Assembly (NCBI GenBank): GCA_003246755.1
Contig: QKDC01000165.1
Span: 1,651-65,650 of the forward strand
Length of the DNA stretch: 64,000 nucleotides
DNA from: Gemmatimonadota bacterium
GTDB lineage: Bacteria > Gemmatimonadota > Gemmatimonadetes > Gemmatimonadales > GWC2-71-9
Direction: 5' to 3'
The position numbers were made by a program, and so were the translations under genes. Below the pieces are notes generated by a model, which saw nothing but the letters and a program-made list of their open reading frames with translations, had not been told where the DNA came from and did no database searches. Below are positions 33,688 to 61,243 of the stretch, one piece after another. Each line of letters starts with the position of its first letter. Positions within the stretch are counted from its first letter, which is position 1.

Positions 33688-33698
33688 GAGCGGCGCCG

Positions 33699-36457: not shown

Positions 36458-36552
36458 GTTTCTCGGACTGGGTTGTTTTGGTCCTCGGAGTCGTCTCGAT
36501 CGTGTGGGTGAATTGGTACTTCTTCCTCGCTTCCAGGACTCCCCGTCAATGA
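36454..36552 (+). CDS. 32-aa single-TM micro-protein ORF between copZ and copA (not in ORF track)
   Basis: Hand translation gives [32 protein letters not shown]. Its ATG overlaps the copZ stop (ATGA 36454-36457). Its TGA overlaps the copA ATG (ATGA 36549-36552). Confidence 0.5.
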
Positions 36553-38888
36553 CGGTGGCTTCGCCCGACCTCCGCACCGAGCGGTCGACGCTGATGGTGA
36601 CGGGCATGACCTGCGCCGCCTGCAGTGGTCGGGTGCAGCGGGCCCTCGAGCGGGAAGAGGGTGTTCGCTCGGCGCATGTGAACCTCATGACCGGGCAGGC
36701 CGAAATCGTCTACCAGCCCGACGTGGTGAGTCCCGACGCGCTGGTGTCGGTCGTGACGGCGACGGGATACGGGGCTTCGGTGCCGGCGCCAGGATCAGAT
36801 GCCATCGCCGATACCGAGGCCCTTGATCGCACCCGATCGGACGAATTGCACGAACTGGCCTCCAAACTCAAGTTCGCGGTTGCCGTCGCCATCCTGAGCA
36901 TGGTGATGATGCCATTTGCCGAAGTGCCCGACGCGATGACAGGCGACCCCATGATGCGGCTCATCGCACCACTGGCAGACGGGCTTCGCTCGTTGGTTCC
37001 GGCTCTCGGCCAATTGCATCCTTCCGCGTGGAGGTGGATCCTCCTCGCCCTGACGCTGCCGACCGTGCTGTGGGCAGGCCGTCATTTCTACACCCGTGCA
37101 TGGGCCGCCTTTCGCCACCACAGTGCGGACATGAATACCCTGATCGCAGTCGGAACCGGTGCCGCGTTGGTGTTCAGTATCGCGATGACGGTGGGTGGCG
37201 ATTGGTTTGGAGCCCATGGTATTCGACCCGTGGTTTACTACGAGGCGGTCAACACGATCATCGCGCTGATCCTCGTTGGCAACTACCTGGAAACCAGGGC
37301 AAAGCGACAGACGACTGGAGCGATTCGTCGGCTCATCGGGCTGAGGCCGAAGACGGCGCGGATACGGAGGAATGGGAGCGACCATGAAGTCGCGTTGGAG
37401 GACGTTCAGGTCGGTGACGAGGTCATCGTTCGTCCAGGGGAGCGGGTCCCGGTGGATGGTGAAGTGCTCGAGGGTCGCAGTTCCATCGACGAAGCGATGC
37501 TGACCGGCGAACCCCTTCCCGTGGGCAAGGAACCGGGAGACGAAGTCACTGGGGGCACGGTGAATCTGACCGGCGCCGTGGTGTTTCGAGCCACTCGCGT
37601 GGGCCGTGACACGGTGCTGGCAAACATCATTCGAATGGTACAGGAAGCACAGGGCTCCCGAGCTCCGATCCAGGCGCTTGCCGATCGCGTGTCGGCCGTC
37701 TTCGTCCCCGTGGTGATCTCGATAGCCATCGCGACGTTTGTGGTCTGGTTCATCATGGCGCCGCCGCCGTCCTCCGGTGTCCGTGCTCTTGCCGCGGCAG
37801 TGACCGTGCTGATCATCGCGTGTCCTTGCGCGATGGGTCTCGCGGTTCCGACGGCGGTGATGGTCGCGACCGGTCGAGGGGCGGAACGGGGGCTCTTGAT
37901 CAAAGGTGGTGAGCCCTTGCAACGGGTTGCATCCCTCGATGTCGTCGTTCTTGACAAGACCGGGACGATCACGGAAGGACGTCCTGCGGTGGCGGTCATG
38001 CGGGTCGCCGAAGGGGTGGATCAGGCTGAATTCCTTCGGTTGGCGGCCTCGATCGAGCGCAGGAGCGAGCATCCGCTCGCGGAGGCCATCGTTCGCTCTG
38101 CGCAGGAAGGAGGCGTCACCCTGCACGAACCGGAGTTCTTTGAGGCCGTCCCTGGAAAGGGGATCCGTGGGCGTGTCGAAGGAAGCGACGTGCTTGTGGG
38201 GACCGTTCGTTTCCTGGAAGAGGAGGGAGTGGAGACCCTCCCCTTCGCAACGGTGGCCAAGGAACTCTCGGCACAGGCCCATACGCCGGTTGCCGTGGCA
38301 GTCAATGGCCGTCTCGTGGGCCTGCTCGGTATCGCGGATCCCGTGCGGGGGACGAGTCGGGATGCCGTGCTGGCGCTCCAGGATCTTGACCTCGACGTCG
38401 TCATGTTGACGGGGGACAATCGGTACACCGCAGAGGTGGTGTCGCACGAGGTGGGCATCGGGACGGTCATTGCGGAGGTGTTGCCCGACCGAAAGCTGGA
38501 CGAGGTGCGTGCCCTCCAAGCGACCGGACAGGTGGTGGCAATGGTGGGAGACGGCATCAACGATGCACCGGCACTGGCCGCGGCCGATGTGGGCATCGCC
38601 CTGGGGAGCGGCACCGACGTGGCCATCGAGTCAGCGGATATCACGTTGATCAGCGGGGATCTCATGGGGGTTGCGCGGGTCGTGAAGCTCTGTCGGCAGA
38701 CCATGGCCGTGATGCGGCAGAATCTGTTCTGGGCCTTCGCCTACAACGTGATCGGGATCCCTGTTGCTGCCGGAGTGTTGTACCCGGCTTTCGGGATTCT
38801 CCTGACCCCGACGATGGCCGCGACTGCGATGGCGGTCAGTTCGGTCAGCGTCGTGACCAATAGCCTGAGGCTTCGAAAAGCAGCATGA
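36549..38888 (+). CDS. copA: Copper-translocating P1B-type ATPase
   Basis: Track ORF 36405..38888 trimmed to ATG 36549 ([29 protein letters not shown]). Motifs CPC ([13 protein letters not shown]), [15 protein letters not shown]. Confidence 0.95.
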
Positions 38889-39232
38889 ACGAGCGCACAC
38901 TCACCCCTTCGCCTTGTGGTTGTGGCACGATGTCGTCAGAGGGGCGGCATGCCGTCGCCGTGGATCCAGAAATCAAGAGAGCCGTACTGCATCGGTTGCG
39001 GCGGATCGAAGGACAGGTTCGCGGTCTCCAACGGATGACGGAAGACGAACGGTACTGTGCGGATATCCTGACCCAGATCTCAAGTGTGCAAGAGGCGCTG
39101 CGTGCCACAGCCAAGGCACTTCTCCACAACCATCTCCGTCATTGTGCCAGTGCGGCGATTCGCTCCGGTGACCCTCACGCGGAAGAGGCTATGTATCAGG
39201 AGTTGGTCGACCTGATCGGACGCACTCGCTGA
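38885..39232 (+). CDS. csoR: CsoR/RcnR-family metal-sensing repressor (Cu-type C-H-C ligands)
   Basis: ATGA overlap with cop[16 protein letters not shown] core. Cys in YCADIL plus H-x3-C in NHLRHC. Confidence 0.85.
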
Positions 39233-40733: not shown

Positions 40734-41866
40734 CTGGTGGTTGTTGCCTCCGTCGCACGTTGATCTCTGAACTCGCGCGACGCACCGTACTCCTTCACGA
40801 GCGCTGCCATCAGAGCCTCGCGTCGCTGATAGAGTCGGCGGAGGGGACGGGCTGGGTGGACGCTCAAGGCGTACGAGGTGAGGAGTGGCAGAGCGATCGT
40901 CGTGTCGAGGTAGGCCACGACGGTCTCGGACAACATGTCGGGGTCGACCTTACCCCAGGAGACCGCTTCGCCGGGGGTGGCACCGGACAGGCCTCCAGTA
41001 TCGGGGCGAGCGTCGGTGAATTGGATGAAGTAGTCGTGCCCCTTTTCGTCAATGCCGAGCACCTCTTGAATTTGCGGCTCGGTCTGCAGGAGGAAGTTCT
41101 TCGGGCTTCCGCCACCCACGATCAACGCAGCGCTCTTGCCCCCAGAACGCTTTGCACCCAATACGATCGCCGCTGTTTCGTTGACATCGGCAGAGACATC
41201 GAACCGGAGCTTGTTCCCGTCGAGAGCAAGCTCCGCCACGTTCATGCCGATCGAACTGTCACCGGGGGAACTCGTATAAACCGGGATGTCGAGATCGTGC
41301 GCCGTGCTCAGCACCGACCGACGGGCGAGACCCAGGGCGCTTTCCCGTTCACGCAAGTAGCCGCCGAGGAGGTAGTGGTACTCGGCGGAACTCATGGGCC
41401 GCTGGAATTGGTCATGCTGGGAGACTTCTCGGAGGAAGGCGTCGGTGGACAACAGAACGTCGAAGTCGAACACGATATCGTAAATCCGAACGACGCCCTC
41501 GGCGTGAAGCTCCACGTCGTCGGCAAAGGGAGATCCCTGATGCAGACTCAATCCCAGTGCAAAGTGCGCATCATGGTAGAGATTGGCCCCTGTGGAGATG
41601 ATCCAGTCGACAAATCCCGCCTCCATCAACGGAATGAGGGAACTCATTCCGAGACCCGCTGGAGTCATCGCCCCAGTCAGACTCATGCCCACGGTGACAT
41701 CGGGTTGCAACACCTGCCTCACGAACAACTGGCATGCCTCGCGGAGGCGACCCGCGTTGTAGGCCAGGAAGGTGTTGTCGATGAGATCGGACACGGTCTC
41801 CTTGCCGGCGATCCCGGCAGGTGAGATCCGTGGGCCGCGCAAATGCTTGTCCGATGGTCGGGACAT
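40730..41866 (-). CDS. Deoxyhypusine synthase-like protein
   Basis: About 378 aa. Blocks [37 protein letters not shown] as in the DHS / homospermidine-synthase-like family. Confidence 0.8.
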
Positions 41867-41905
41867 TGAGTTCTCCTCGAGGGGACTATGCGAGAGGCGT
41901 TCGTG

Positions 41906-44900
41906 CTAGCGCCTCGAAGGCGCGATGATCCGGGTTTGGTAGGTACGAAGGTACTCCTGGTACGGGGCGCCTGCCGGGAAGCGTTCGTCGGGCCCGTAGG
42001 GGTACTCCGTCATCCCATGAAACGGCAGCGGTTCCACAGCGGTACCGAGCGCGGTATTGAGATCGGAGTCCTTGATCCACCCGTCCGTGTAAAGCAGGAA
42101 GTCACGCCTCCAACCATTGGGCAGTGCGGGGGCAGCGGCAGCGTCGAATTCGATGGTTGTCTCATCCCCCGGGGCCATCACGATGTATTGGTCGTCCGCA
42201 GTACCAAGGAGGGAGACGACGTCCCCGTAACGGGTAAACGCACCGGTAATCGGTCGCCACCGCGGCTCGGTGGCCACCGTTCCGTAGTCGAACCAGTGAG
42301 GGCCGTATCGTCCACCTTTCCGGAAGGTGCGGGAGAACCCACGGTAGTGCAGGTCCGCCGAGACCGGAACGAGAGTCGTGACTCGGACTGGACTGCTCGA
42401 TGCGGTCCCGGCGATAAAGGCCTGATCCCAATAGATCTGCATGTTGGATCGTATTCTGACCCGGTGATCATCGGTCGGAAACTTTCCAGTGAGGTCGGCA
42501 ATCACGGTCTTCGCCTTCCCGGAGGGAAAGCCAAGGTCGGGGATCACGGTCTGCCATCGGCCGGACGCGTCAACGACATCGAGCGACGGCCATTGGACCT
42601 GGAACGCGCTCGACTGAGCAACCGCGACGTTGATGCTGGCGTCGGAGGGGAAGATCCAGCCATTGAGGAAGAGGAAGAGGCTGTCCGCCGCGGGAACCTC
42701 TCCGAGATCGAGGATCAACTCATGTGGTGTGGTGATCCCCTGGTATCGCGTCGGTGTGAGGTACGGCGCGTAGCGGTGATCCCTGTCGGTGAGAGCCGAC
42801 AAGACGTCCATGCCCTGACCATCGATCGCCGACACCGGTGGGCGGGCTCCAGGGACGTGGTAGAGGCGGAGGCTCGTCGGCCCCGGTGGCACGAAGCGCT
42901 CGTTGACGTAAACTTCAACCGAATCCGGATGATCCAGCACCAGCAGTTTGACTTCATCGAGGTAAGCGGTTTCCCAGAGCTCTTCGGTGACTTGCAGGGA
43001 GTATCGGCCGTTCTTCGGTCGAAGCAGTTCTCCCGCAATACGCACGTATTCTGTCGACGCCGCCGCCGGAGCGTACTTGGTGTTCCCACCCATGATTCCC
43101 AGGGGCATCCCGATCGCGCTGCGCCACATGACGTCCGTCACGAACTCATACCGCTCGCCATTCCATGCGTACGTGAAGGCGCATGACCCCTTGAGTACAT
43201 CCTGCTCGATGATCTCTCCCGAACTCCCAGGCGAGAGGACCTGGGGCACCCCGTTGGGCCAGGTGACCCGGATGACGTCGGCCGTTCGGTGCGTCGCGAG
43301 CCCGAAATGGGTGACTCGCTCGGTGACCACTCGGGACTGGTAGAGGTCGCCTGATCGAATCTCGACCCGCGCACCGATCCCGAACGCGTTGTTCTTCCCA
43401 CTTCCGGTCCGCAAGGCCGTGAGTTGAACCTTCACGTAGAAATTGGTGTTACCCCCATCGTTTCGGAGCACACGCACCCCGGTCGGCATGGAGACGAGTA
43501 GGTCCTCGTCCCCGTCGAGATCGTAGTCGGTGACGGCCAAAGCACCGCCGCCGACGTTCGGGAGTATCTCGGAGCGATCCTCGAAGCGTCCCCGCCCGTC
43601 GTTGGCCAGCAGGACAGTCCCTCGCGCCTGATCTGCCAAAGGTCGTCCCGTGACGATGAGGTCCAAATCTCCATCGTTGTCATAGTCGATCGTGCCGAGG
43701 GCCTGTGGGGATATCGTCGCCAGGACGCGACTGAGTTGGCTGTCATCGCCTCGGGAGAAAGAGCCATCTCCACGGTTGGTAAACATCCATCCCGCTCCCG
43801 CACTCTCCCCGACCACGATGAGGTCGAGATCTCCATCGCCATCATAGTCACCGGCCGTCACTGCCTTGGCGGGTCCGGGAGGGGTGAAGCCCGCGGCTGA
43901 GCCTTCGGCAAACCGGGACTGTCCCAGGTTCAGGTGCACACGATGATTGTCTTCCGCACCGACCGTGACGAGATCGATCAGTCCGTCATCGTCGAAGTCA
44001 CCGATCGCGGCCCCATTGGTCGATGCTGGAAGACCGGCAAGTCCGGTTTCGGATCCCAGGGGCGTGAAGGTGCCGTCGAGGTTGTTGCGGAAGACTCGGT
44101 CGAGATCTTCCGTGCCCAGGAAGAGGTCCAGGTCGCCGTCGTGATCGAAATCAAACCACAAGGCGACTCGTTCCGGGCCGATGACCCCCGCAAGGCGAGC
44201 GCTGGCATCGCGAAGCCCGCCGTCCGCCGGACGGAGAAAGAGGTGTCGTCCGTCCGAGCCACTCGTGTACAGGTCGAGCCGGCCGTCGTTGTCCGTATCG
44301 GCGAATACGGCGGTCAGTGGGAGATTGGTTGCCCCCAATTCCACCTCAACCGTGCTTGCGACATAGCGTCCACCCGCATTCCGAAAGAGCGTCGATCCGG
44401 TGAGGACGTCATCCACCCCGTCACCATCGAAGTCCCCCACCGCCAGGGACCTGGGTTGTCCTCCCCCCAGTGCCGAAAGGGCTCCCAGACCGGCTTCGGT
44501 CGTGGCGTCCCGAAACGCTATCGTCCGTCGCACGAGGTCGCTCCGTCCGGGGAGCTGAAGGATCGGGCTGTACGTCAGGACGGGAAAGCCCTCGAGGGGT
44601 CCACCGACGCCCGGTCCCTGTATCGAGCGCAGGTTGGACTGAAACTCTGGCGTGAGTTCCAGAAAACGCTGGAACCGAGCGAGCGGGGCCAGAGCAGCTT
44701 CCCAGTCACTCGATCGCAGATGTCGGAGCGCTTGCTCGAGGGTCGTCATCATCTCCCCCGGGGGCTGGGGGATCAGCCCCTGCAGCGCTTCGAGCTGCCC
44801 GAGGGCGCTGTCGGCATTTCCACGAGTCGCGAGCCCGACGGCCAATCGCAAGCGCGCTGCCAAGTTCCCCGGTGCCCCGACGACGACCCGACTCAGGTAA

Positions 44901-45376
44901 TCCAGGGATTCGCTGGACCCCGGGTCGTCGGCCTGCGCCAGTTCGGCAAGGCTGAAGAGAACCTTTGGGTTCGCGGGTTCACGCTGGGCGAGCCGCAGCA
45001 GCTCGCGACGGGATTCCTCCGGGCGTCCCGTGAGTTCGTAGATCTTGGCCAGCAGGAGGTAGGTGGAGACTTCGGTCGTGTCGCGATCGAGGGCTCGGTG
45101 GAGTTGGGTCTCCGCCTCTCGATAGCGCCCGGATCGAACGAATACCAGGGCCAGATTGGAATAGCCAGAAGCAGCCCGAGGCAGCAAGTCGATGACCTGG
45201 CGAAACTCCGTTTCGGCCTCGTGAAGCCTCCCTTCCTGGAGGTATACCGACCCGAGTGTAGTTGCCGTCATGGCGCGGCCCACGGCGTCGGGCGCCTCGC
45301 GATTGCATGCGCTCGAAACCAGAACCCAAGACGCCAGAAGCGTCATGAGGTGCCGTGGGGTAGAACGAATTGGCAT
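41906..45376 (-). CDS. Lipoprotein: TPR + FG-GAP/VCBS repeats + UnbV/ASPIC domain + about 430-aa uncharacterised C-terminal region (CRTAC1 family, 1156 aa)
   Basis: Lipobox-like LVSSAC. TPR-like helical N-terminus. Repeats DFDGDGVDDV, DTDNDGRLDLY, DFDHDGDLDLF, DFDDDGLIDLV, DYDGDGDLDLIV, DYDNDGDLDLIV, DYDLDGDEDLLV. UnbV-like NAFGIGARVEIRSG. Confidence 0.8.
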   Translation of the reverse strand: MPIRSTPRHLMTLLASWVLVSSACNREAPDAVGRAMTATTLGSVYLQEGRLHEAETEFRQVIDLLPRAASGYSNLALVFVRSGRYREAETQLHRALDRDTTEVSTYLLLAKIYELTGRPEESRRELLRLAQREPANPKVLFSLAELAQADDPGSSESLDYLSRVVVGAPGNLAARLRLAVGLATRGNADSALGQLEALQGLIPQPPGEMMTTLEQALRHLRSSDWEAALAPLARFQRFLELTPEFQSNLRSIQGPGVGGPLEGFPVLTYSPILQLPGRSDLVRRTIAFRDATTEAGLGALSALGGGQPRSLAVGDFDGDGVDDVLTGSTLFRNAGGRYVASTVEVELGATNLPLTAVFADTDNDGRLDLYTSGSDGRHLFLRPADGGLRDASARLAGVIGPERVALWFDFDHDGDLDLFLGTEDLDRVFRNNLDGTFTPLGSETGLAGLPASTNGAAIGDFDDDGLIDLVTVGAEDNHRVHLNLGQSRFAEGSAAGFTPPGPAKAVTAGDYDGDGDLDLIVVGESAGAGWMFTNRGDGSFSRGDDSQLSRVLATISPQALGTIDYDNDGDLDLIVTGRPLADQARGTVLLANDGRGRFEDRSEILPNVGGGALAVTDYDLDGDEDLLVSMPTGVRVLRNDGGNTNFYVKVQLTALRTGSGKNNAFGIGARVEIRSGDLYQSRVVTERVTHFGLATHRTADVIRVTWPNGVPQVLSPGSSGEIIEQDVLKGSCAFTYAWNGERYEFVTDVMWRSAIGMPLGIMGGNTKYAPAAASTEYVRIAGELLRPKNGRYSLQVTEELWETAYLDEVKLLVLDHPDSVEVYVNERFVPPGPTSLRLYHVPGARPPVSAIDGQGMDVLSALTDRDHRYAPYLTPTRYQGITTPHELILDLGEVPAADSLFLFLNGWIFPSDASINVAVAQSSAFQVQWPSLDVVDASGRWQTVIPDLGFPSGKAKTVIADLTGKFPTDDHRVRIRSNMQIYWDQAFIAGTASSSPVRVTTLVPVSADLHYRGFSRTFRKGGRYGPHWFDYGTVATEPRWRPITGAFTRYGDVVSLLGTADDQYIVMAPGDETTIEFDAAAAPALPNGWRRDFLLYTDGWIKDSDLNTALGTAVEPLPFHGMTEYPYGPDERFPAGAPYQEYLRTYQTRIIAPSRR

Positions 45377-45479
45377 CGTGTGTGGACTCCCCTCGTGGGG
45401 AACTTAGATGATGATCGGGGAGCACGCCAAGCGGATCCTTCGCTTGTCCGTCGACGCTCGGTCATGATATGGTTCCGCC

Positions 45480-47240
45480 GTGACTTCCCTCGACCGTCGA
45501 CGGCTCATCGTGAGTGGCCTCTTTCTCGGCGCCATCGGACTGGTAGCCTATCTCGGCCAGGCCCGTGACGCCTCGCTGGCCGGGATCGGTCACCCGGGAT
45601 TTCGGCTCGAAGAGGTCTCCGCCGATGTTGGGATCGATTTTCGTCATCATCGGCCTACGCTCGATCCTGTCTTCGACAACATCGCGCCCCACATCGCGGG
45701 AGTTGGCGCGGGGGTCTCCGTAACCGACGCTAACCGTGACGGTTGGCCCGACCTCTACTTCACCAATAGCCGGTTCGATGAGCCCAACGCGTTGTACCTC
45801 AATCAAGGTGACGGCCGGTTCGTGGAGATGGCCGCCTCGGCGGGTGTCGCGAATCTCAACCAGAAGAGCGAGGGCGTGTCGATGGGGTCGGTCTGGGGCG
45901 ACTACGATAACGACGGCCTCGAAGATCTCCTGGTGTATCGGTACGGTTATCTCCGGCTCTACCGGAACCTCGGAAGCCTTCAATTCGAGGATGTGACCGC
46001 CTCGGCGGGCCTTCGTCGTTGGGTCAACAGCAACGGAGCGATCTGGTTCGATTTCGATCGCGATGGTCTGCTGGACCTGTACGTGACGGCGTACTTCCGC
46101 TCCGATGTGAACCTGTGGAATCCGGTCACCACACGGATCATGCACAACAGCTTCGAGTTTGCAGCCAACGGAGGGAGAAATCTCCTCTTCCGGAATGTTG
46201 GGGACGGGCGATTCGAAGATGTCACCGAGCGCATGGGAGTGGGGAGCACGCGCTGGACCCTTGCCGCAGCATCGGCAGACTTCAACGCCGACGGGTGGCC
46301 CGACTTGTACCTCGCGAACGACTACGGCCCCGAGGAGTTCTTCGTCAACGAGGGGGGGACACGGTTTGTCCTCACGCGGGCGGGGCTCGAAACCGATTCC
46401 AAGAGCGGGATGTCGGTTTCTCTCGGGGACATGTCCAATCGCGGGCGCCTCGACGTCTTTGTCACCAACATTTCCGAGCGCGGGTATCTCTTCCAGGACA
46501 ACAACCTGCGGCTCAACCTCCTTGCAGAGGTGGGACGGTTCGAGGACGTGGCGAGCGGCGTGGTGGCGGATGCCGGATGGGCTTGGGGTGCACAGTTCGG
46601 TGACTTGAACAACGACGGATGGAACGATCTCTATGTCCTCAATGGATTCGTCTCGGCCGACAGGGACAAGAGCTACTGGTATGAGATGTCGAAGGTGGCC
46701 GGAGCAAACGGTAACATCTTCGAAGACGCTCGGAACTGGCCTGCGATGGGCTCGACGAGCCTCTCAGGTTATGAGCGGTCTCGTGTCCTCCTCAATCTCG
46801 GTGCCTCGGGCTGGGTGGACGTGGCTGACTCCGTCGGGGTGACGGACGAGTACGATGGTCGCGCGGTCGCGCTGGTCGATCTCTTCAATCGCGGCGTCCT
46901 CGATGTGGTGATCGCCAATCAAGATCAGCCTGCCACGGTTTACCGAAATACCGTGACCCCGGGAAACCACTGGATAGGCTTCGCCCTGGAGGGAACCCGA
47001 AGTAACCGGAGTGCCATCGGTGCGGAAGTCGTGATCGAGTTTTCTGGGGGGCACCAACGGAAGGTTGTTGATGGCGGGATGGGCTTTGCCAGTCAGAATG
47101 ACCGCAGGCTCCATTTTGGTCTGGGATCGGCGGGTCGTGTGGAACGGGCGGTGATCCATTGGCCCTCGGGGATGACGCAGATCTTGACGGATCTCGCTGT
47201 CGATCGACTGCACCATGTGGTCGAGCCCGATAGGCTGTGA
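45480..47240 (+). CDS. CRTAC1-family FG-GAP/VCBS + UnbV/ASPIC protein (586 aa)
   Basis: GTG start. N-terminal DRRRLIVSGLFLGAIGLVAYLG anchor/signal. Repeats DANRDGWPDLYF, DYDNDGLEDLLV, DFDRDGLLDLYV, DFNADGWPDLYL, DLNNDGWNDLYV. UnbV-like NRSAIGAEVVIEFSG...ASQNDRRLHFGLG. Confidence 0.85.
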   Translation: MTSLDRRRLIVSGLFLGAIGLVAYLGQARDASLAGIGHPGFRLEEVSADVGIDFRHHRPTLDPVFDNIAPHIAGVGAGVSVTDANRDGWPDLYFTNSRFDEPNALYLNQGDGRFVEMAASAGVANLNQKSEGVSMGSVWGDYDNDGLEDLLVYRYGYLRLYRNLGSLQFEDVTASAGLRRWVNSNGAIWFDFDRDGLLDLYVTAYFRSDVNLWNPVTTRIMHNSFEFAANGGRNLLFRNVGDGRFEDVTERMGVGSTRWTLAAASADFNADGWPDLYLANDYGPEEFFVNEGGTRFVLTRAGLETDSKSGMSVSLGDMSNRGRLDVFVTNISERGYLFQDNNLRLNLLAEVGRFEDVASGVVADAGWAWGAQFGDLNNDGWNDLYVLNGFVSADRDKSYWYEMSKVAGANGNIFEDARNWPAMGSTSLSGYERSRVLLNLGASGWVDVADSVGVTDEYDGRAVALVDLFNRGVLDVVIANQDQPATVYRNTVTPGNHWIGFALEGTRSNRSAIGAEVVIEFSGGHQRKVVDGGMGFASQNDRRLHFGLGSAGRVERAVIHWPSGMTQILTDLAVDRLHHVVEPDRL

Positions 47241-48064
47241 CGGACACCATCTTGAGACGCCTCGACCCTAAGCACTTCATCATCATTCTCATCACCCTCG
47301 TGCTCGTGCTGGGCGAGGCGAAGTACTCAGTCCTCGGTGGCTACGACCGCCTGGCCATGACGCTCAGCGTCTGTGTTGCCACGGAGCTAGCGTTCTCGTG
47401 GTTCATCCGCGGGAAGATGCCGGGCCTCCAGAGCGCCTACGTGAGTGGAATCAGTCTGGCGCTCCTCACCAAGCCGCAAGGTCATCTCCTCTGGCCGTTT
47501 GCGTTGGGAGCGTTTCTCGCCATCGCCTCCAAGTACGTCGTTCAGGTCCACGGTCGCCACCTGTGGAACCCGTCGAATTTCTCGATCAGTCTGCTCCTGC
47601 TCCTCGCCCCCGGCCGGATGAGTGTTCTGAGCCATCAGTGGGGCAACGACCTCTTCACCAATGCCATCATCTGGGGAATCGGCCTCCTCGTGGTCTCACG
47701 CGCCAAGGTGCTACACGTCACATTGACCTATGTCGCAAGCTTCTTCACACTCGGCTTCATCCGGAGTCAGCTCGTGGGGACTCCACTGCTTCCCGAGGTA
47801 GCTCCGATCACAGGGCCCATGTACCAGCTCTTCGTCTTCTTCATGGTGACCGATCCGCGAACCACGGTCCGGAGCAGGAGGGGGCGCATGCTGGTTGTTG
47901 GGATTGTGGCGCTGGTCGAGGCCGCAATTCGGCTGGCTTCCGATTTCCATCTGCCCGTCCCGGCCGCGCTCTCGGCGTCGCCCCCCATCCTGGCTCTCGC
48001 AATCGTCGGGCCCATCGCGATGTGGATCGACCTACGACGCACGCCGGCTGCCGCGGCGGTGTAG
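47237..48064 (+). CDS. Polytopic membrane protein, UnbU-like / RnfD-NqrB-like (tentative)
   Basis: GTGA overlap with the upstream CRTAC1 gene. About 8 TM segments. HLWNPSNFSISLLLL resembles the (F/L)NPA-type loop of RnfD/NqrB-like proteins. The family call is tentative, from memory. Confidence 0.45.
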   Translation: MTDTILRRLDPKHFIIILITLVLVLGEAKYSVLGGYDRLAMTLSVCVATELAFSWFIRGKMPGLQSAYVSGISLALLTKPQGHLLWPFALGAFLAIASKYVVQVHGRHLWNPSNFSISLLLLLAPGRMSVLSHQWGNDLFTNAIIWGIGLLVVSRAKVLHVTLTYVASFFTLGFIRSQLVGTPLLPEVAPITGPMYQLFVFFMVTDPRTTVRSRRGRMLVVGIVALVEAAIRLASDFHLPVPAALSASPPILALAIVGPIAMWIDLRRTPAAAAV

Positions 48065-48084
48065 CTCCTGGTCCGGTCGCGTGG

Positions 48085-48103
48085 CGCGTTGAGTCTCGAC
48101 GCG
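48085..48103. terminator. Hairpin between convergent genes (possible bidirectional terminator)
   Basis: cgcgttga (48085-48092) / loop gtc / tcgacgcg (48096-48103). 8 bp including one G-U pair. No clear U-tract. Confidence 0.3.
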
Positions 48104-50689
<2,586 letters not shown>

Positions 50690-50698
50690 GGAGAGAGG

Positions 50699-52783
50699 TT
50701 ACCGCATTCCGGTCGTCACGGGAATCGTGGCGTGGTCCTCGGACATGACCGTGACTGGTGCGGTGATCCCGGCTTCCTCGGTGAAGAGGAAGTTGAGCAA
50801 GAATTGGTCTGTCTTCCGGTACAGGAGGCGCGCGGTCACACGCAATTCCGTCACCGCGTCGGTGGGAGGGGGCACGGCGACCACCCGGTCGAGTGCGGCC
50901 AGCGCGGTCTCCGTTCCCGCAGTCACGATGGCACCCGGGTACAAGAAGGTGAATTCGGCCTGGTCGGAGAGACCGGGGAAGAGCGACCGTCGGTAGCGGA
51001 CGCCGACCATCTCCCAGAGGTTGTGCCGATCGATGAGGTTACCGTATTGGTCGACCGGCTCGGCCTTGAGGATGAACGATCCGGGTGCGATGAAGTGTGA
51101 GGAGTCACGCTGCCCAGTCCGGTAGACCACGTTCCCGTTTTGATCCGTGACCTCCACTTCCACCCAGGCCTGGATGATGTCGAGCGGCCCAGTGGGGAAG
51201 TCATGGCCCACTTTGTTGTTGGTGAGTACTGTCTGGATCGTGACCGGCTCTCCGGGGCTGACCTGGGGCGGAGCCACGATGCGTATGGGGACGGCGGGGC
51301 CCTCGCGCCACTTATCCGCAATCTCCGGGACGTCGATCTCACCTCGAAGCCACTTTTCGGTCAGGGCGACGTGTTCCGCGGCCCCGGGAAGTTCGAGGGC
51401 GAGGGGCATGAATTGGTTCGCGGCCAGGAACCTGTGACTTCGGTGTTTCCCATCGGTGGGAGAACGGTTGTAGTCGAGATCGTCACCGCGGCCAGGGTCC
51501 TCCGAGGCCACGAGCGGCATATGGCATTCGCGACACTCCACCGTTTTGGTGGGGTCCCCGGGGGTATTCCAACGGCTCTTGCGCCAGTTATCGAACTGAT
51601 TCTGAAGCTGGACCCACCCAACCTGGTTGATCTCTTCGTCGATGAACTGCTTATGGCAGGCCGCGCAGAACTCTGGGCTCTTGAAGAGCTTGTGCTGGAG
51701 GCTCTTGACGTGATACCGCGGGTATGCCTTGATGAGAAATTCGCCAATCAATTGCCTGGGCCCGCCGTCGGCACCTTCGAACAGGTAGCGGCCGGGTTGG
51801 GAAATGACATAGTTCGCATTCCCCTGAACATCCGTCTCCGAAATCGAATGACAGGAAACGCACGAAATGCCTTCCTGATAGCCGCTCAGGGACGTGAGAT
51901 CCTCGACGAAGATGTTCTTGGTACCTGAAAAGAGGGAGATGGGGTCATGACATCCGCCACAATAGCGAGTGGATTCCGCCCCGTTTTGTTTTCCCATGAC
52001 GGATTGGACCGCCAGAAACGCAGCATCCATTGCCGAATAGCGATGCGCGCTGACTGCCCATTCGTCGTAGATCGCCTTGTGGCAACCTGCGGTGCCACAT
52101 GAAGCCGAACCCGACAACGACCGCGCGTCGAAGGCCCCTCCCGTACTGGTCCGGGCCAGGCTCGGTGCAAAAGGACGTTCGGGGCCGTAGAGGTAGCTGT
52201 AATCTTCTGGAAGTTCGTTGACGAACGGGGCGGGAGCCACCCACAGGGCTCCCACCACCGCTACCGCTATCAATCCGCCCGTCCAGAGCATTGTGCTCAG
52301 ACCGAATCCCTTGACTGCGCGTGCCAGTGCGGGTTCCCGAGTCGCTGGTGCGAGGGCCCGTACGATGACCGTGGCGAGATGTGGGACGACCGACGCCACC
52401 AGGGCAAACGTTGCCACGATATGGCTGAGATCCCACACACGCCCAATTCGGGTTCCCACGACGGACTGCCAGGTGAGGACCAGCCCGGAGATGACGAGCA
52501 CGAGCGTCGCCCCCAGGGCGAAATACCCCGTGAGCGTCTCATGGCTGAGCCGCAACGAGCGATAGGTGCGCCAATGCCGGACCAGATACCACACGAATGG
52601 GAGGATGCAAACCAGCCCGATCCCCGTATGGAGGATGACCATCACCTGGTTGGAGACACTGAAGGGGAGCAGGAAGATCGAGAGACCGGTCAGGGTCTCG
52701 AACACCATCAGACCGGAGACCGACCGCAAGAGCCGGCTTTGCCATTCCGAGGATTTTTGGGCCGCGTAGCCAGGTTTGACCAC
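50699..52783 (-). CDS. Fusion of a 5-TM His-containing membrane domain with a periplasmic multihaem c-type cytochrome (cytochrome c554-like) and a C-terminal beta-rich domain
   Basis: Haem motifs CGGCH, CVSCH, CAACH, CRECH plus CGTAGCH (nt 52079-52099), the last followed by KAIYDEWAVSAH. TM region has His residues in ILHTGIG, LVRHWRT, DLSHIVA, VVPHLAT. Start uncertain: GTG 52783 preferred, ATG 52708 possible; the track ORF runs to 53038. Confidence 0.75.
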   Translation of the reverse strand: MVKPGYAAQKSSEWQSRLLRSVSGLMVFETLTGLSIFLLPFSVSNQVMVILHTGIGLVCILPFVWYLVRHWRTYRSLRLSHETLTGYFALGATLVLVISGLVLTWQSVVGTRIGRVWDLSHIVATFALVASVVPHLATVIVRALAPATREPALARAVKGFGLSTMLWTGGLIAVAVVGALWVAPAPFVNELPEDYSYLYGPERPFAPSLARTSTGGAFDARSLSGSASCGTAGCHKAIYDEWAVSAHRYSAMDAAFLAVQSVMGKQNGAESTRYCGGCHDPISLFSGTKNIFVEDLTSLSGYQEGISCVSCHSISETDVQGNANYVISQPGRYLFEGADGGPRQLIGEFLIKAYPRYHVKSLQHKLFKSPEFCAACHKQFIDEEINQVGWVQLQNQFDNWRKSRWNTPGDPTKTVECRECHMPLVASEDPGRGDDLDYNRSPTDGKHRSHRFLAANQFMPLALELPGAAEHVALTEKWLRGEIDVPEIADKWREGPAVPIRIVAPPQVSPGEPVTIQTVLTNNKVGHDFPTGPLDIIQAWVEVEVTDQNGNVVYRTGQRDSSHFIAPGSFILKAEPVDQYGNLIDRHNLWEMVGVRYRRSLFPGLSDQAEFTFLYPGAIVTAGTETALAALDRVVAVPPPTDAVTELRVTARLLYRKTDQFLLNFLFTEEAGITAPVTVMSEDHATIPVTTGMR

Positions 52784-52932
52784 CGTACGTGGGCTCCGTT
52801 GTGCAAGGGGGGGGAACAGATTCGTCGTGAAGTGATACTGGCCCTCATCTGAAGCAGTCGTGAACCCCGTATGAAGCGGGTGTGTAAGGTGTGTGGGCCC
52901 ACGGACTTCACTTCTTACCGGAGTGTGCCATC

Positions 52933-53337
52933 GTGATCGCCAGACTCTCACTCTTATCCCTGTTGGTGTGCCTTGGCTGCTCCACTTCCAGCCCAGGAGG
53001 CCCGAACCCCCCGCCTCCCCCTGGCCCTCCACCACCACCGCCTCCTTCCCCGTCGCCCGCAGTTACCGTCACGGTGCAGAACAACCTCTTCACGCCTGAG
53101 ATCGCCAGTGTGAATGTCGGAGGGACGGTGACCTGGAACTGGGTCAGCAGTGACCATACGGTCACTTCGGTGCTCTCTCCCGCCTTCAACGCCAACACGG
53201 GGGTCCAGAACACCGGGTTCACCCTTGGCCCGTTGACGTTCAACACCGCGGGGACATTCGCCTACATCTGTACGGTTCACGGCTCCGTCAGTGGAAACTC
53301 GACTTCGGGAATGGCAGGGACTGTGGTGGTTCAGTAA
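52933..53337 (+). CDS. Lipoprotein cupredoxin (type-1 blue copper protein) with poly-Pro linker
   Basis: GTG 52933 (VIARLSLLSLLVCLGC lipobox). Linker PNPPPPPGPPPPPPPSPSP. Ligand pattern H (SSDHTV) ... C-x2-H-x11-M (ICTVHGSVSGNSTSGM). Confidence 0.75.
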   Translation: MIARLSLLSLLVCLGCSTSSPGGPNPPPPPGPPPPPPPSPSPAVTVTVQNNLFTPEIASVNVGGTVTWNWVSSDHTVTSVLSPAFNANTGVQNTGFTLGPLTFNTAGTFAYICTVHGSVSGNSTSGMAGTVVVQ

Positions 53338-53344
53338 CCGGAAC

Positions 53345-53377
53345 TCGGTGGGCACTGGTGAGGAGCCAGCCCACCGA
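53345..53377 (+). terminator. Strong hairpin after the cupredoxin stop (terminator candidate, no U-tract)
   Basis: tcggtgggc(ac)tgg (53345-53358) / loop tgaggag / ccagcccaccga (53366-53377). 12 bp with a 2-nt bulge. Confidence 0.35.
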
Positions 53378-53457
53378 AGAGCTTCTCCCTGGCGTCCGGG
53401 GCAAACCCTGGATACTCTAGCGGGCAGATTCCTTCACCTGCGATCCCTGGAGTAACC

Positions 53458-56343
53458 ATGGACTTGTCCCTCACGCTCAGGCGCCTCTCGTGTCTGATCC
53501 TCGTTGGTCTCCTGATCCCGTTCTCCGATGTCTCGGCGCAGGACCTCCTCAATCAAACCTCTGACCCTCTGCTCCGTGGTTTCCGCTGGCGTTCGATCGG
53601 CCCGGCGGGACAGGGCGGTCGCGTCGATGACATCGAGGCGGTCGAAACCGATCCCACCACCTTCTACGTGGGCTTCGCGACGGGGGGCCTTTGGAAGACT
53701 ACGAATCAGGGCATCACCTTCGAGCCGATCTTCGACAGATACGGAACACATTCTGTTGGTGATATCGCGATTGCTCCATCCAACCCGGATGTGGTCTACG
53801 TCGGCACGGGCGAGGCCAACAATCGGCAGAGTTCCTCGTTCGGTGACGGCGTGTACAAGACGACCGATGGAGGCAAGACGTTTGCCCACGTTGGTTTGCG
53901 GAACACGCAGTCGATCGCGCGGGTCGTCGTGCACCCCACGAACCCGGATGTGGTCTGGGTCGCTGCCATCGGTCACCTGTTTGGTCCCAACCCAGACCGA
54001 GGCGTCTTCCTGACCACCGATGGGGGGAGGACCTGGACCAAGACGCTCTTCGTGGACGACAATACAGGAGCGACGGACCTCATCATCCACCCCACCAACC
54101 CCCAGGTTCTGTTCGCGGCCACCTACGAGAGGCGGCGAACCGCATGGGGGTTCGCGAGCGGCGGATCCGCCACGGGGATCTGGAAGAGCGCCGATGGAGG
54201 CCGCAGTTGGACCCGCCTCCGCGGGAATGGGCTGCCCGAGGGGACGATGGGGAGGATCGGCCTGGCGATCAGCCGGTCGAATCCAGACGTCGTGTACATC
54301 CAAGCGGAAGTGGCGCCCGACAGGGAACCGCAGGATCGAAGCGCGGCTCCCAGTCAGGGTGGTCCGGGAGGGGGGGGATTCGGCCAGCAGGATGAGCCAC
54401 CCGACGACAAGGTGAGCGGGGTATGGCGATCGGATGATGGCGGCAACAGCTGGAGCTTCATGAGTAACGAGAACAACCGCCCCATGTATTACAGCCAGAT
54501 CAGGGTCGATCCACGTGACCCGATGACGGTGTACGTTGGCGGGCAGCAGGCCTCGAAATCGGTGGATGGCGGCAAGACCTTCGAACCGATGCGAGGCATG
54601 GGCCATGTGGACAACCACGCGATCTGGATCGACCCCAACGACAGTCGCCATGTGATGTACGGAAACGACGGCTCGGTGGACGTTTCGTGGGATGGTGGCG
54701 AGAACTGGGAGTCGCTTCGGTCCTGGGCGGTGGGCCAGCCGTATCATGCGTCGGTGGATATGCGCCACCCGTACTACGTCTGCACCGGTCTGCAAGACAA
54801 TGGGAGTTGGTGTGGACCCAGTTCCGCGCGAAGTGGTTCGATCCTTTCGCAGGATTGGTATCGAGTCGGGGGCGGGGATGGGTTCTACACGCTCGTTGAT
54901 CCGACCGACCCCAACACGATCTACAGCGAGTCACAAAACGGCAATGTCCGACGCGTGGATCTTGGTACCGGGGAGTCCGTCTCGATCCGACCGAGGATCG
55001 GTGGAGGAGGCGGTGGCGGATTCGGTGGTGGCGGAACCCCCAACATCGTCCCCATCCCGGACGACAATCCGCGGATCAGGTGGAACTGGAACACGCCGTT
55101 GGTGATGTCCGCCCATACTCCGACGACGATCTACGCGGGTGGAAATGCCCTTTTCATTTCGCGTGACCGGGGTACCACCTGGACCATGACGTCCGACCTG
55201 ACCAAGGGCATCGACAAAGACGAGCGAAGCATTCTCGGCATGAGGGGGACCATGCCTCGATGCAGCCGACAGCGGAGTGGCGCGTGTATTCACTCGCGCA
55301 ACGACGGTGTGAATGCCTACGGCACGATCGTATCCATCTCAGAGTCATCAATCACCCCTTCCATACTCTGGGTGGGAACGGACGATGGGAACATCCAAGT
55401 GTCCAGGGATGGGGGAACGACCTGGACGGAAGTAGGAAAGAATCTCCCCGGCGGTCCGAAGGAGTATTACGTCTCTCGGGTTGAAGCGTCCCATTTCGAT
55501 CGGTCGACGGCCTATGCCTCACTGGACGGGCATCGGAGCGATGACCTGAATCCATATGTCTTCGTGACCCGAGACTATGGCGCCACCTGGTCGTCCATTT
55601 CTGCGGGGCTCCCATCGGTTGGAAACGTCAATACCGTTCGAGAGGACCCCCGGAATTCCAACTTGCTATATGTCGGGACCGAGTTTGGTGTCTTCGTATC
55701 GCTCGATGCCGGCGGGCACTGGAAGCGCTTCATGAGCGGTCTCCCCGTGGTGCGCATCGACGATATCCTGGTCCATCCGCGAGAGAATGATCTCGTGCTC
55801 GCATCGCACGGCCGCAGTGTCTGGATCATGGACGACGTGACGGCCCTCCAGCAGCTGGCCGGCACCACACCGCGGGAACCGGTGCTTCTCCAGCCTCAGA
55901 ACACCGTGCGCTGGAAGCAGGACGTCCGACAGCAGCGATCGGTCACCGGCGCGAAGAACTTCGAGGGCGAGAATGCGCCACGGGGGACTGCGATCGGTTA
56001 CTATCTGCCCGCCGCCGCTCGGGGCGATGTCAAGATCACGATTCGTGCGTTGGGGAGTGATTCTGTCTTTCGGACTATCGAGGGAACCCGGGAGGCCGGA
56101 CTCAACCGGTTGCAGTGGGATCTCTGCAGCGATCCCCGGCCAGTGCAGCAGGGTCAGGGTGGATTCGGCGGCTTCGGTGGTGGTGGGTGTGGCGGAGGAG
56201 GCTTTGGTGGCGGGCAACAGGGTCAGCGACGCATCGCACGACTCGCCGATCCTGGTTCCTACGTCGTCACCCTCGAGGTGGGTGGCCGAGAATACGCCAA
56301 AGGCGTGACGGTGCTCGAGGACATCTGGCTGAACGAGCGCTAA
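53458..56343 (+). CDS. Sortilin/VPS10-like BNR (Asp-box) repeat protein, secreted, 961 aa (paralogue of 9774..13007)
   Basis: Signal peptide. Asp-boxes TTDGGKTFAHV, TTDGGRTWTKT, SADGGRSWTRL, SDDGGNSWSFM, SVDGGKTFEPM, SWDGGENWESL, SRDRGTTWTMT, SRDGGTTWTEV. Two Gly/Phe-rich inserts. Confidence 0.8.
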   Translation: MDLSLTLRRLSCLILVGLLIPFSDVSAQDLLNQTSDPLLRGFRWRSIGPAGQGGRVDDIEAVETDPTTFYVGFATGGLWKTTNQGITFEPIFDRYGTHSVGDIAIAPSNPDVVYVGTGEANNRQSSSFGDGVYKTTDGGKTFAHVGLRNTQSIARVVVHPTNPDVVWVAAIGHLFGPNPDRGVFLTTDGGRTWTKTLFVDDNTGATDLIIHPTNPQVLFAATYERRRTAWGFASGGSATGIWKSADGGRSWTRLRGNGLPEGTMGRIGLAISRSNPDVVYIQAEVAPDREPQDRSAAPSQGGPGGGGFGQQDEPPDDKVSGVWRSDDGGNSWSFMSNENNRPMYYSQIRVDPRDPMTVYVGGQQASKSVDGGKTFEPMRGMGHVDNHAIWIDPNDSRHVMYGNDGSVDVSWDGGENWESLRSWAVGQPYHASVDMRHPYYVCTGLQDNGSWCGPSSARSGSILSQDWYRVGGGDGFYTLVDPTDPNTIYSESQNGNVRRVDLGTGESVSIRPRIGGGGGGGFGGGGTPNIVPIPDDNPRIRWNWNTPLVMSAHTPTTIYAGGNALFISRDRGTTWTMTSDLTKGIDKDERSILGMRGTMPRCSRQRSGACIHSRNDGVNAYGTIVSISESSITPSILWVGTDDGNIQVSRDGGTTWTEVGKNLPGGPKEYYVSRVEASHFDRSTAYASLDGHRSDDLNPYVFVTRDYGATWSSISAGLPSVGNVNTVREDPRNSNLLYVGTEFGVFVSLDAGGHWKRFMSGLPVVRIDDILVHPRENDLVLASHGRSVWIMDDVTALQQLAGTTPREPVLLQPQNTVRWKQDVRQQRSVTGAKNFEGENAPRGTAIGYYLPAAARGDVKITIRALGSDSVFRTIEGTREAGLNRLQWDLCSDPRPVQQGQGGFGGFGGGGCGGGGFGGGQQGQRRIARLADPGSYVVTLEVGGREYAKGVTVLEDIWLNER

Positions 56344-56895: not shown

Positions 56896-58086
56896 ATGCT
56901 CAAAACCACTCCATTCCACCCACGAACGGCCCCCCTTGTTCGGGCACAAACCTGGCGTCGTTGGGCGGGGTACCAGGTCGCGAGTTCGTACGAACCCCAC
57001 CCGGATCGTGAGTACGCGGCCGTGCGCAATGGGGCGGCACTCTTCGACGTCTCTCCATTGCACAAGTACATGATCAGCGGCCCCGATGCCGAACGACTGC
57101 TTGACCGGATGGTGACCAGGGACGTCACGAAGTGTCGGGTCGGGCAGGTGCTGTACACTCCGTGGTGCGACGCCTCCGGCAAGATCATCGATGATGGAAC
57201 AATCAGCCGGCTCGAGGAGATGCGGTTTCGGTTGACGGCGGCTGAGCCCAATCTGCGGTGGCTTACGATGAATGCCGTCGGTCTCGATGTCACCATCGAG
57301 GATGTATCCGAACGGACGGCGGCCCTCGCGCTCCAGGGTCCCCTGTCTCGGGCGGTGCTCGAGCAGGTGTCCCCAGCCGACCTTGCGGCACTCAGGTACT
57401 TCAGGCTCGTGGAGACGACGATTCGCAAGATTCCGGTCACCATTTCGCGTACGGGATACACGGGCGACCTGGGATATGAGTTGTGGGTCGATGCGACCCG
57501 CGCTCTCGACCTGTGGGACGCGTTGTCCGACGCGGGGGCGGCTTACGGAATCACACCAGCAGGTATCTGGGCACTCGATCTTGCGCGCATCGAGGCAGGG
57601 CTAGTCATGCTCGACGTCGATTATCACTCCGCGCATCATGCACTGATCGAGGCCCAGAAGTCGTCGCCCTTCGAACTCGGCCTCGGCTGGACGGTCCCCG
57701 CGACAAAGCCTGGACCGTACAACGGGCGCCAGGCGCTCCGGTCAGAACGGGAAAGCCCACGGGCGTGGGCATTCGTGGGTCTCGAAGTGTCGTGGGAATC
57801 GTTCGAGGCCCTCCACTTGGATCGAGGTCTTCCCCCGCACCTTCCCGTGATCGCCTGGCGCGTCAGTCAGCCGGTCTATCGAAATGGCGCACAGGTCGGG
57901 TATGCCTCGAGTGGGTGCTGGTCGCCGCTCCTCAAACGTTATATCGCACTCGCCCATCTCGAAGCATCCAACTCTGACCCTGGAACCGCAGTCACCATGG
58001 AGGTCACGGTCGAACATCGCCGGTGTCAGGCTAGAGCGGTGGTGCGCTCGCTCCCCTTCTTCGACCCCGAGCGCAAACGCGCATGA
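56896..58086 (+). CDS. Aminomethyltransferase-family (GcvT-like) folate-binding protein
   Basis: EYAAVRNGAALFDVSPLHKYMISGPDAERLLDRMVTRDV and YTGDLGYELWV blocks typical of the GcvT/DmdA-type fold. Confidence 0.8.
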   Translation: MLKTTPFHPRTAPLVRAQTWRRWAGYQVASSYEPHPDREYAAVRNGAALFDVSPLHKYMISGPDAERLLDRMVTRDVTKCRVGQVLYTPWCDASGKIIDDGTISRLEEMRFRLTAAEPNLRWLTMNAVGLDVTIEDVSERTAALALQGPLSRAVLEQVSPADLAALRYFRLVETTIRKIPVTISRTGYTGDLGYELWVDATRALDLWDALSDAGAAYGITPAGIWALDLARIEAGLVMLDVDYHSAHHALIEAQKSSPFELGLGWTVPATKPGPYNGRQALRSERESPRAWAFVGLEVSWESFEALHLDRGLPPHLPVIAWRVSQPVYRNGAQVGYASSGCWSPLLKRYIALAHLEASNSDPGTAVTMEVTVEHRRCQARAVVRSLPFFDPERKRA

Positions 58087-59663: not shown

Positions 59664-59664
59664 C

Positions 59665-61233: not shown

Positions 61234-61243
61234 GAGGCTTCGG

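Follow-up and report, generated by a model that had tools for sequence, protein, structure and literature searches.

Several bacterial membrane proteins share a general design in which a dihaem b-type membrane domain links the quinone pool to periplasmic haems or to an enzyme, among them the CbcL-type cytochromes, FdnI/HydC and MsrQ. In a quite different setting, the enediyne warhead cassette is made up of E, E10, E3/UnbL, E4/UnbV and E5/UnbU, and the E4/E5 pair is retained in these cassettes; the Pfam domain UnbV_ASPIC is named after UnbV. Proteins of the CRTAC1/ASPIC/UnbV type are abundant in soil and marine bacteria. A paper on cable bacteria places cytochrome c552, ExtKL and Gsu2801 together in one pentahaem (PHC) family that has an immunoglobulin (Ig)-like domain; proteins of the c552/ExtKL type have been considered both as electron carriers and in connection with extracellular electron transport (PMC11976967). 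A CRTAC1-family gene flanked by multihaem or haem-c genes is found in the hydrazine-synthase-homologue clusters of Planctomycetota, Syntrophobacter and Paludibaculum (PMC12758564). For E4 and E5 no biochemical role is proven, a review offering only an acetylenase proposal for CalU15, which is untested (PMC8341276). No tested function for the bacterial CRTAC1 proteins, or likewise for the E4/E5 proteins of enediyne clusters, turned up in the searchable literature, subscription journals being outside its coverage. Relatives of several of these proteins are encoded in a Gemmatimonadota genome, at positions 41906 to 53337 of a 64,000-nucleotide stretch of contig QKDC01000165.1 (assembly GCA_003246755.1), the whole of which is referred to as the window.

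A reading of this region from the sequence alone (the sequence-only reading) had proposed a single envelope module of five units covering about 11.5 kb. Comparison with other genomes shows instead two adjacent gene pairs, each conserved on its own, together with an unrelated putative copper protein. All six open reading frames (ORFs) are present at the coordinates first assigned to them, and their domain calls are confirmed by Pfam; the cupredoxin scores below the cut-off, and is backed by its homologues and conserved ligands. Module A extends over 41906-48064 and module B over 48104-52783 on the minus strand, and the features are as follows.

41906..45376, minus strand: divergent gene of module A, encoding a 1156-aa probable lipoprotein with TPR, FG-GAP and UnbV_ASPIC domains and a C-terminal 437 aa without a family match
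45377..45479: divergent intergenic region of 103 bp between the arms of module A, from the ORF coordinates
45480..47240, plus strand: module A gene 1, encoding a 586-aa FG-GAP and UnbV_ASPIC protein of the enediyne 'E4/UnbV' type with an N-terminal hydrophobic anchor
47237..48064, plus strand: module A gene 2, encoding a 275-aa polytopic membrane protein with an RnfD/NqrB fold, of the enediyne 'E5/UnbU' type
48104..50689, minus strand: module B gene 2, encoding an 861-aa membrane-anchored CRTAC1-type FG-GAP/UnbV_ASPIC/TPR protein
50699..52783, minus strand: module B gene 1, encoding a 694-aa fusion cytochrome
52079..52099, minus strand: first c-haem motif of the cytochrome, CGTAGCH (CX4CH), residues 229-235
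52933..53337, plus strand: gene for a 134-aa lipoprotein-like cupredoxin, divergent from the adjoining cytochrome gene

For comparisons of gene order, the genes are lettered A (large paralogue), B (586-aa propeller), C (UnbU-like), D (propeller-TPR) and E (cytochrome), with > and < denoting strand. Direct reading of the sequence bears out both close junctions described earlier, namely the GTGA start/stop overlap at 47237-47240 that joins the 586-aa and 275-aa genes, and the 9-nt gap (TAA-cctctctcc-ATG, 50690-50698) between the cytochrome and 861-aa genes. No promoter consensus of the sigma-70 type was found in the 103-bp intergenic region, and a scan of 41500-53800 returned no promoters and one terminator-like site, which lies inside a gene.

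The two genes of module B form an operon that is very widespread and apparently undescribed, no account of it having been found in the same searchable literature, again without subscription journals. In a scan of one genome per GTDB species, relatives of the cytochrome were detected in at least 564 species; the profile was built from a 14-sequence subset of the cytochromes, one from 45 sequences being too divergent to use. The 80 loci compared here are the best 80 of these matches, at 59-69% identity, and all of them derive from metagenome-assembled genomes (MAGs). Gemmatimonadota account for 54 of them, and the record titles assign the others to Bacteroidota (Rhodothermales, Cyclobacteriaceae, Saprospiraceae and 'Cytophagia'), KSB1, Calditrichaceae, Marinimicrobia, Krumholzibacteriia and a few MAGs without classification. 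Counts of neighbouring genes, here and below, were taken from tblastn searches with the window proteins; simple ORF calling sometimes chose antisense ORFs.

In 70 of the 72 species loci with enough sequence, the cytochrome gene is directly followed on the same strand by a gene for a D-type propeller, and the TPR part is present in 61 of 62. Among the called genes of three long contigs, the gap between the cytochrome gene and the FG-GAP/UnbV(/TPR) gene is 1-9 nt and the flanks are otherwise unrelated. The association persists in three distant homologues, in which cytochromes of 29-33% identity again adjoin FG-GAP genes. In this respect the sequence-only reading, which had connected CRTAC1/UnbV propellers with a transmembrane haem conduit, is supported, the connection being strongly conserved. 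At one of these loci (L090, cytochrome 33% identical) the cytochrome is flanked by an FG-GAP/UnbV gene on its upstream side and by a TPR-FG-GAP-UnbV gene on its downstream side. At L091 (2386-10001) a 1185-aa FG-GAP-UnbV-HEAT protein, in which HEAT replaces TPR, precedes two tandem cytochrome paralogues, and at L092 (2022-4748) and L093 (1974-4700) an FG-GAP gene precedes a 908-aa cytochrome fused to TPR repeats. A separate TPR gene of about 289 aa occurs in 35 of the best 80 loci. The TPR part thus shifts among the propeller gene, as in the window, a gene of its own and the cytochrome gene, as would be expected if these proteins were subunits of a single complex. De novo ORF clustering of the 80 loci revealed no widely recurrent neighbour family other than the TPR gene of about 289 aa. 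Genes for a 2-hydroxyacyl-CoA dehydratase, an enoyl-CoA hydratase and an Rrf2 regulator recur in 5-8 loci, and were rejected as members because they reflect lineage-specific synteny.

Two further observations concern individual loci. At L090 (165-2662), a membrane FA_hydroxylase gene, of the di-iron hydroxylase/desaturase family, stands directly ahead of the FG-GAP/UnbV gene and the cytochrome. The cytochromes of MAGs labelled as Bacteroidota (L019, L037, L052, L056, L061, L066 and others) are 60-66% identical to the Gemmatimonadota protein, which is unusually high across phyla and could result from strong constraint, horizontal transfer or binning errors.

The cytochrome itself has three parts: an N-terminal domain of five transmembrane (TM) helices that resembles cytochrome b561 (approximately 52214-52783), a periplasmic pentahaem c domain (approximately 51344-52201) and a C-terminal Ig-like beta domain (approximately 50714-51301). 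Its start at 52783 is backed by an identical 694-aa database entry and by homologue lengths of 670-715 aa, and these rule out a longer ORF reaching 53038 as an over-extension. The number of haem motifs given by the sequence-only reading, five, is correct, and their types are now corrected to one CX4CH (residue 229) and four CXXCH (residues 275, 308, 373 and 417). Pfam Cytochrome_C554 matches at 30.7 bits. More than 3400 homologues are present in a collection clustered at 90%, and 3122 clusters in a library clustered at 50%, 461 of them at E < 1e-30; the full-length architecture is retained down to about 25-30% identity. These cytochromes constitute a large unnamed family of inner-membrane multihaem proteins. 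Among 45 sequences, the residues C229, C234 and H235 of the first motif are invariant down to 24% identity, and the four CXXCH motifs are conserved, as are H247, H358, H450 and H527, which are candidate distal histidines.

An AlphaFold2 (AF2) model built from the 45-sequence alignment is confident, with a predicted local distance difference test score (pLDDT) of 88.9 and a predicted TM-score (pTM) of 0.86. Its five long transmembrane helices are accompanied by a haem domain made up mostly of helices and, at the C-terminus, by a beta domain. A Foldseek search with this model gave one clear match, Thermochromatium tepidum c552 (5ze8; E 2.4e-11, TM-score 0.69, target-normalised), which is also the sole sequence match in the PDB (E 0.003). 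The two proteins share the succession of five c-type haems and an Ig-like domain, and the CX4CH motif aligns with the CANCH motif of c552. The 385-435-residue chain of c552 aligns to the periplasmic part only, having no counterpart of the TM domain. The window cytochrome thus differs from c552 in adding a 5-TM domain with four conserved histidines, in having CX4CH rather than CXXCH as its first motif, and in being followed near-obligately by a propeller gene. Against the ExtKL model NF040886 it gives a weak hit of 25.1 bits, compared with a cut-off of 250; it is a relative of ExtKL and not its equivalog.

The whole-protein Foldseek search gave no identification of the TM domain, and its likely nature emerges from family-level comparisons. 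H52, H70 and H121 are invariant both in an alignment of 24 TM domains and among the 45 sequences; H135 is invariant in the 24 and at least 90% conserved in the 45. In the AF2 model, TM2 bears H52 and H70 while TM4 bears H121 and H135, the latter two 14 positions apart (H121-x13-H135), as in cytochrome b. A family profile restricted to the TM domain aligns the H121/H135 helix with the two-histidine helix of actinobacterial QcrB (E approximately 6e-4), and searches with the 24 domains match DUF4405 in 14 (best E 7e-6), Ni_hydr_CYTB in 11 (best E 2.8e-5) and Ferric_reduct in three. On the strength of the four conserved histidines and these profile matches, we read the cytochrome as a dihaem b-type membrane domain fused to a pentahaem c552-type domain, which would carry seven haems in total. 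The general design would be shared with CbcL, FdnI/HydC and MsrQ; the window protein is not a member of the CbcL or MsrQ families, and differs from these cytochromes and b-type anchors in its b-then-c order, its c552-type five-haem domain and its CRTAC1 propeller partner. Module B resembles a known design, a membrane-anchored multihaem conduit with a periplasmic partner, in which the family of the partner is unexpected.

FG-GAP propeller and UnbV_ASPIC domains score above the Pfam cut-offs in all three propeller proteins of the region. In the 861-aa protein, Pfam matches FG-GAP_3 (161 bits), UnbV_ASPIC (60.6 bits; 48914-49114) and TPR (approximately 48320-48859), and there is a signal anchor at 50591-50647. 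The propeller has calcium-type loops (DxDxDG). An N-terminal hydrophobic segment is found in all 66 aligned D-type propellers, and their conserved positions include no cysteine, two histidines and two methionines, the rest being mostly glycine and aspartate or asparagine. The sequence-only reading had described the propellers as exoproteins; this needs correcting for those encoded at 45480 and 48104, both of which carry N-terminal hydrophobic anchors. Human CRTAC1 (9etn) likewise combines an FG-GAP propeller with UnbV_ASPIC. In contrast to it, the bacterial proteins are membrane-anchored or lipoproteins, have TPR repeats and are genetically tied to membrane proteins of redox type.

The second conserved pair is formed by the 586-aa and 275-aa genes of module A. 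The UnbU-like gene directly follows a B-type FG-GAP/UnbV gene in 58 of 59 loci, comprising all 17 of a first set and 41 of 42 metagenome loci, and at least 576 metagenome stretches contain the pair, confirming the conservation that had been suspected. The 586-aa protein matches FG-GAP_3 at 136 bits and UnbV_ASPIC at 72.6 bits, as well as human CRTAC1 (9etn; E 4e-18). Its 275-aa partner had been described as UnbU/RnfD-like, and several results agree: PF03116 (NQR2_RnfD_RnfE) matches at 41.8 bits against a cut-off of 27.7, and among more than 6250 homologues some have been named 'enediyne biosynthesis protein E5' by the Joint Genome Institute (JGI). The AF2 model (pLDDT 75.6) is closest in Foldseek to RnfD chains (9eri_D, TM-score 0.71; 8ahx_D, 0.70), followed by NqrB chains (0.56-0.63) and, more weakly, urea and Amt channels (0.41-0.50), all query-normalised. 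Among PDB entries, RnfD and NqrB chains were reached by the fold comparison alone; a search of the PDB with the UnbU-like sequence profile retrieved neither.

The protein nevertheless lacks two defining features of RnfD and NqrB, the flavin motif and the companion subunits. The matched chains have 304-412 residues, compared with 275 here, and the TIGR01946 score, 25 bits, falls far short of the cut-off of 207. The covalent flavin mononucleotide (FMN) motif ([STG]GA[TS]; S/T-G-A-T) is found in none of 32 aligned UnbU-like proteins, and the companion families RnfA, B, C, E, G and NqrA, C-F are absent from the window ORFs scanned and the UnbU contexts inspected. All 32 proteins do share the invariant segments LSHQWGN (residues 131-137, window 47627-47647) and FMVTDPRTT (residues 202-210), which may mark a ligand site. 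The pair corresponds to enediyne E4/E5 in both families, in their order (FG-GAP/UnbV_ASPIC, then RnfD-like) and in translational coupling. It differs in its surroundings: as had been remarked, the window ORFs scanned include no polyketide synthase (PKS), thioesterase, UnbL-type or other biosynthetic gene, and the called genes in the inspected UnbU contexts (L001, L002, L006 and L087) likewise encode neither an enediyne PKS nor a thioesterase nor an UnbL-type protein. By family and name the pair matches E4/E5, standing here outside any polyketide pathway.

The 1156-aa protein represents a common companion of the pair. It matches TPR, FG-GAP_3 (132.6 bits) and UnbV_ASPIC (28.4 bits), and its last 437 aa (41909-43219, minus strand) have no Pfam match even at E <= 1; this segment is conserved, as orthologues aligning over the full length at 43-49% identity show. 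Divergent from the UnbV/UnbU pair stand orthologues of about 1100 aa, which are found divergently upstream in 9 of 22 loci, and 30 of the 80 cytochrome loci also have a large paralogue of this type nearby.

Extracytoplasmic electron transfer is a reasonable working hypothesis for the cytochrome operon. More specifically, module B may encode a membrane-bound electron-transfer complex, a quinol-linked haem conduit serving a periplasmic propeller subunit, an interpretation that we prefer and to which we would give about an even chance. In such a complex, the 5-TM domain would bind two b haems through the four histidines on TM2 and TM4 and would exchange electrons with the quinone pool or the cytoplasmic side. 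Electrons would then travel, presumably in this direction, along the five c haems of the c552/ExtKL-type periplasmic domain, and the membrane-anchored calcium-type propeller, docked through its TPR part, would be the partner that binds or converts the substrate. Both the formation of a complex and a redox or catalytic role of the propeller, rather than that of a scaffold, are suppositions at this stage. A redox-linked role is supported by the coupling of the same propeller family to a second membrane protein with a respiratory-complex fold, the UnbU-like protein, and by its position between haem-c proteins in the hydrazine-synthase-homologue clusters (PMC12758564); the haem proteins of those clusters are HZS alpha-like and beta-gamma-like, with no b-type membrane domain, and the phyla differ.

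Several observations weigh against this interpretation. The alignment of D-type propellers contains no recognisable redox cofactor site. For the window cytochrome itself no b-cytochrome Pfam model scores above threshold, its own b-type match being a weak one to DUF4405 at E 0.07. We know of no CRTAC1-family protein that is redox-active, and none was found in the searchable literature. Finally, two of the four distinct UnbU contexts have SusC/SusD genes beside module A, which favours a role in nutrient uptake over redox chemistry: a TonB-dependent receptor and SusD/RagB pair directly adjoins the UnbV/UnbU genes in two other Gemmatimonadota contigs, L006 (1-3577) and L087 (1-3370).

The significance of the operon lies partly in the propellers. 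One sub-family is found almost always directly behind a membrane cytochrome of putative b/c type, across at least 564 species and 3122 sequence clusters, and this pairing provides a concrete handle on the abundant bacterial CRTAC1 proteins, which probably act in a membrane electron-transfer complex. The cytochrome family, for its part, belongs to mostly uncultured bacteria not known as metal reducers, and could be miscounted in gene surveys of 'extracellular electron transfer'.

The main rival explanation makes the propeller-TPR protein a scaffold, adhesin or assembly factor that positions, stabilises or matures the cytochrome, the b/c cytochrome then being a conduit to or from an external or periplasmic acceptor such as a metal, a humic substance, an oxygen species or a soluble carrier like the cupredoxin. 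In its favour, binding to proteins and ligands is a classic function of FG-GAP propellers and of TPR repeats, the TPR parts weakly match the TPR model of the CcmH/CycH apocytochrome chaperones, the propeller has no recognisable cofactor site, and c552/ExtKL-type pentahaem proteins are considered as electron carriers and in extracellular electron transport (PMC11976967). A generic scaffold would not, on the other hand, be expected to stay paired as one propeller family down to 29-33% cytochrome identity, nor to pair in addition with a second, unrelated membrane protein of redox-complex fold and with other haem-c proteins (PMC12758564). No recurrent outer-membrane porin or other component of extracellular transfer was found in the 80 cytochrome loci. 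This alternative seems unlikely, if still one to be taken seriously.

A bolder and more tentative idea takes in all the propellers. The CRTAC1/UnbV calcium propellers might, with a probability well short of even, be the substrate-handling subunits of a new class of periplasmic oxidoreductases, wired to the membrane either by the heptahaem b/c cytochrome or by the RnfD/NqrB-like protein without a flavin motif; on this view enediyne E4/E5 would have branched off from a widespread envelope machinery as a specialised form that acts, on the outer side of the membrane, upon a hydrophobic substrate. The opposite view of module A, and perhaps of all three propellers, is that they serve nutrient uptake of the polysaccharide-utilisation-locus type and perform no redox chemistry, the propellers binding or cleaving a polymer or small molecule and the RnfD-fold protein moving the product across the inner membrane. 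Besides the receptor and SusD genes at L006 and L087, a 91-aa Plug fragment occupies the corresponding place at L001; urea and Amt channels follow RnfD/NqrB in the Foldseek list; and the covalent-FMN motif is missing throughout. Set against this, there are no SusC/SusD genes in the window region scanned, and the TM-scores of the channels (0.41-0.50) are well below those of RnfD/NqrB (0.56-0.71). Uptake would also leave unexplained both the near-obligate cytochrome partner of the D-type propeller and the retention of E4/E5 in enediyne cassettes, a retention supported here by the JGI name 'E5'. It is judged improbable.

The relationship between the two modules can be assessed from their co-location. 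An UnbU-like gene is found within 10 kb of the cytochrome in 11 of the 80 loci (6 of the 32 with full flanks), all of them Gemmatimonadota, and is absent within that distance from the other 69. In the reverse comparison, just one of 26 UnbU-like loci with a flank of at least 10 kb has the cytochrome nearby and 25 lack it, so that from this side the linkage is minor; the single case, L096, is a relative of the window at 90-94% identity and keeps the window arrangement as far as its contig reaches. Where the modules adjoin, they do so in at least five gene orders, the last of these being that of the window.

C< B< E> D> A<
E> D> A< B> C>
A> B> C> ... E> D>
A< E> D> B> C>
E> D> C< B< A>

Chance would place an UnbU-like gene near about 0.5-1.5% of loci, by rough arithmetic that assumes 1-3 UnbU genes in a 4-Mb genome and ignores shared ancestry. 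As the observed co-location of 14-19% exceeds this, a loose functional or regulatory link in Gemmatimonadota is suggested, albeit a non-obligate one. The trio of UnbV, UnbU-like protein and multihaem cytochrome, for which a neighbourhood analysis had been advised, is therefore not conserved as a unit, each of its two pairs being so separately. Modules A and B are best read as two autonomous and widely conserved envelope modules, which happen to adjoin here as they sometimes do in Gemmatimonadota. That all five units including the cupredoxin constitute one integrated envelope redox module is very improbable and largely refuted: the tight spacing in the window, the 11 co-located cases in several gene orders, the like arrangement of L096 and the proximity of cupredoxin homologues to a c-type cytochrome elsewhere are outweighed by the 69 cytochrome operons and 25 UnbU loci in which the other module is missing, by the absence of the cupredoxin from all 80 cytochrome and all 80 UnbU loci, and by the different family of the cytochrome beside the cupredoxin in other genomes.

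The cupredoxin is best treated as standing beside the cytochrome by coincidence. Its matches to cupredoxin and halocyanin models are weak and below the Pfam and NCBIfam cut-offs (Cupredoxin_1, 23.3 bits against 27), and some of its homologues carry PF00127. H75, C113, H116 and M127 are conserved in 18 homologues, so that a type-1 copper protein is plausible, although the loop between the histidine and methionine is unusually long (x10). At L094 (7120-8423) and L095 (7121-8423), homologues with 64-69% identity are divergent from a cytochrome of CytoC_RC type, a reaction-centre-like tetrahaem protein of 252-265 aa that belongs to another family than the window cytochrome. This suggests a separate conserved pair of cupredoxin and CytoC_RC cytochrome; the cupredoxin could possibly be a general periplasmic carrier.

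Among the ORFs scanned, the remainder of the window encodes housekeeping and metal-homeostasis functions. A stretch of the latter upstream of the modules comprises a ZnuA/ABC-3 metal uptake pair at 32650-34523 and, at 36405-39232, a copper-type P1B ATPase (HMA and E1-E2 ATPase domains, CopA-type) followed directly by a CsoR-like metal-sensitive repressor (PF02583). A copper theme uniting the CopA-type ATPase, the CsoR-like repressor and the cupredoxin was rejected because the ATPase and repressor genes are 3-14 kb away and there is no co-conservation. At 58083-62925, two adjoining and partly overlapping genes for flavoproteins resembling amine oxidases and phytoene desaturases are followed by one for a Rieske ring-hydroxylating oxygenase alpha subunit; a connection of these genes with the modules through carotenoids or lipids was set aside, there being no recurrence, and they may represent a cluster for carotenoid or aromatic modification. 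Sortilin/Vps10 proteins with BNR/Asp-box repeats are encoded at 9774-13007 (1077 aa) and at 53458-56343 (961 aa), the second directly downstream of the cupredoxin.

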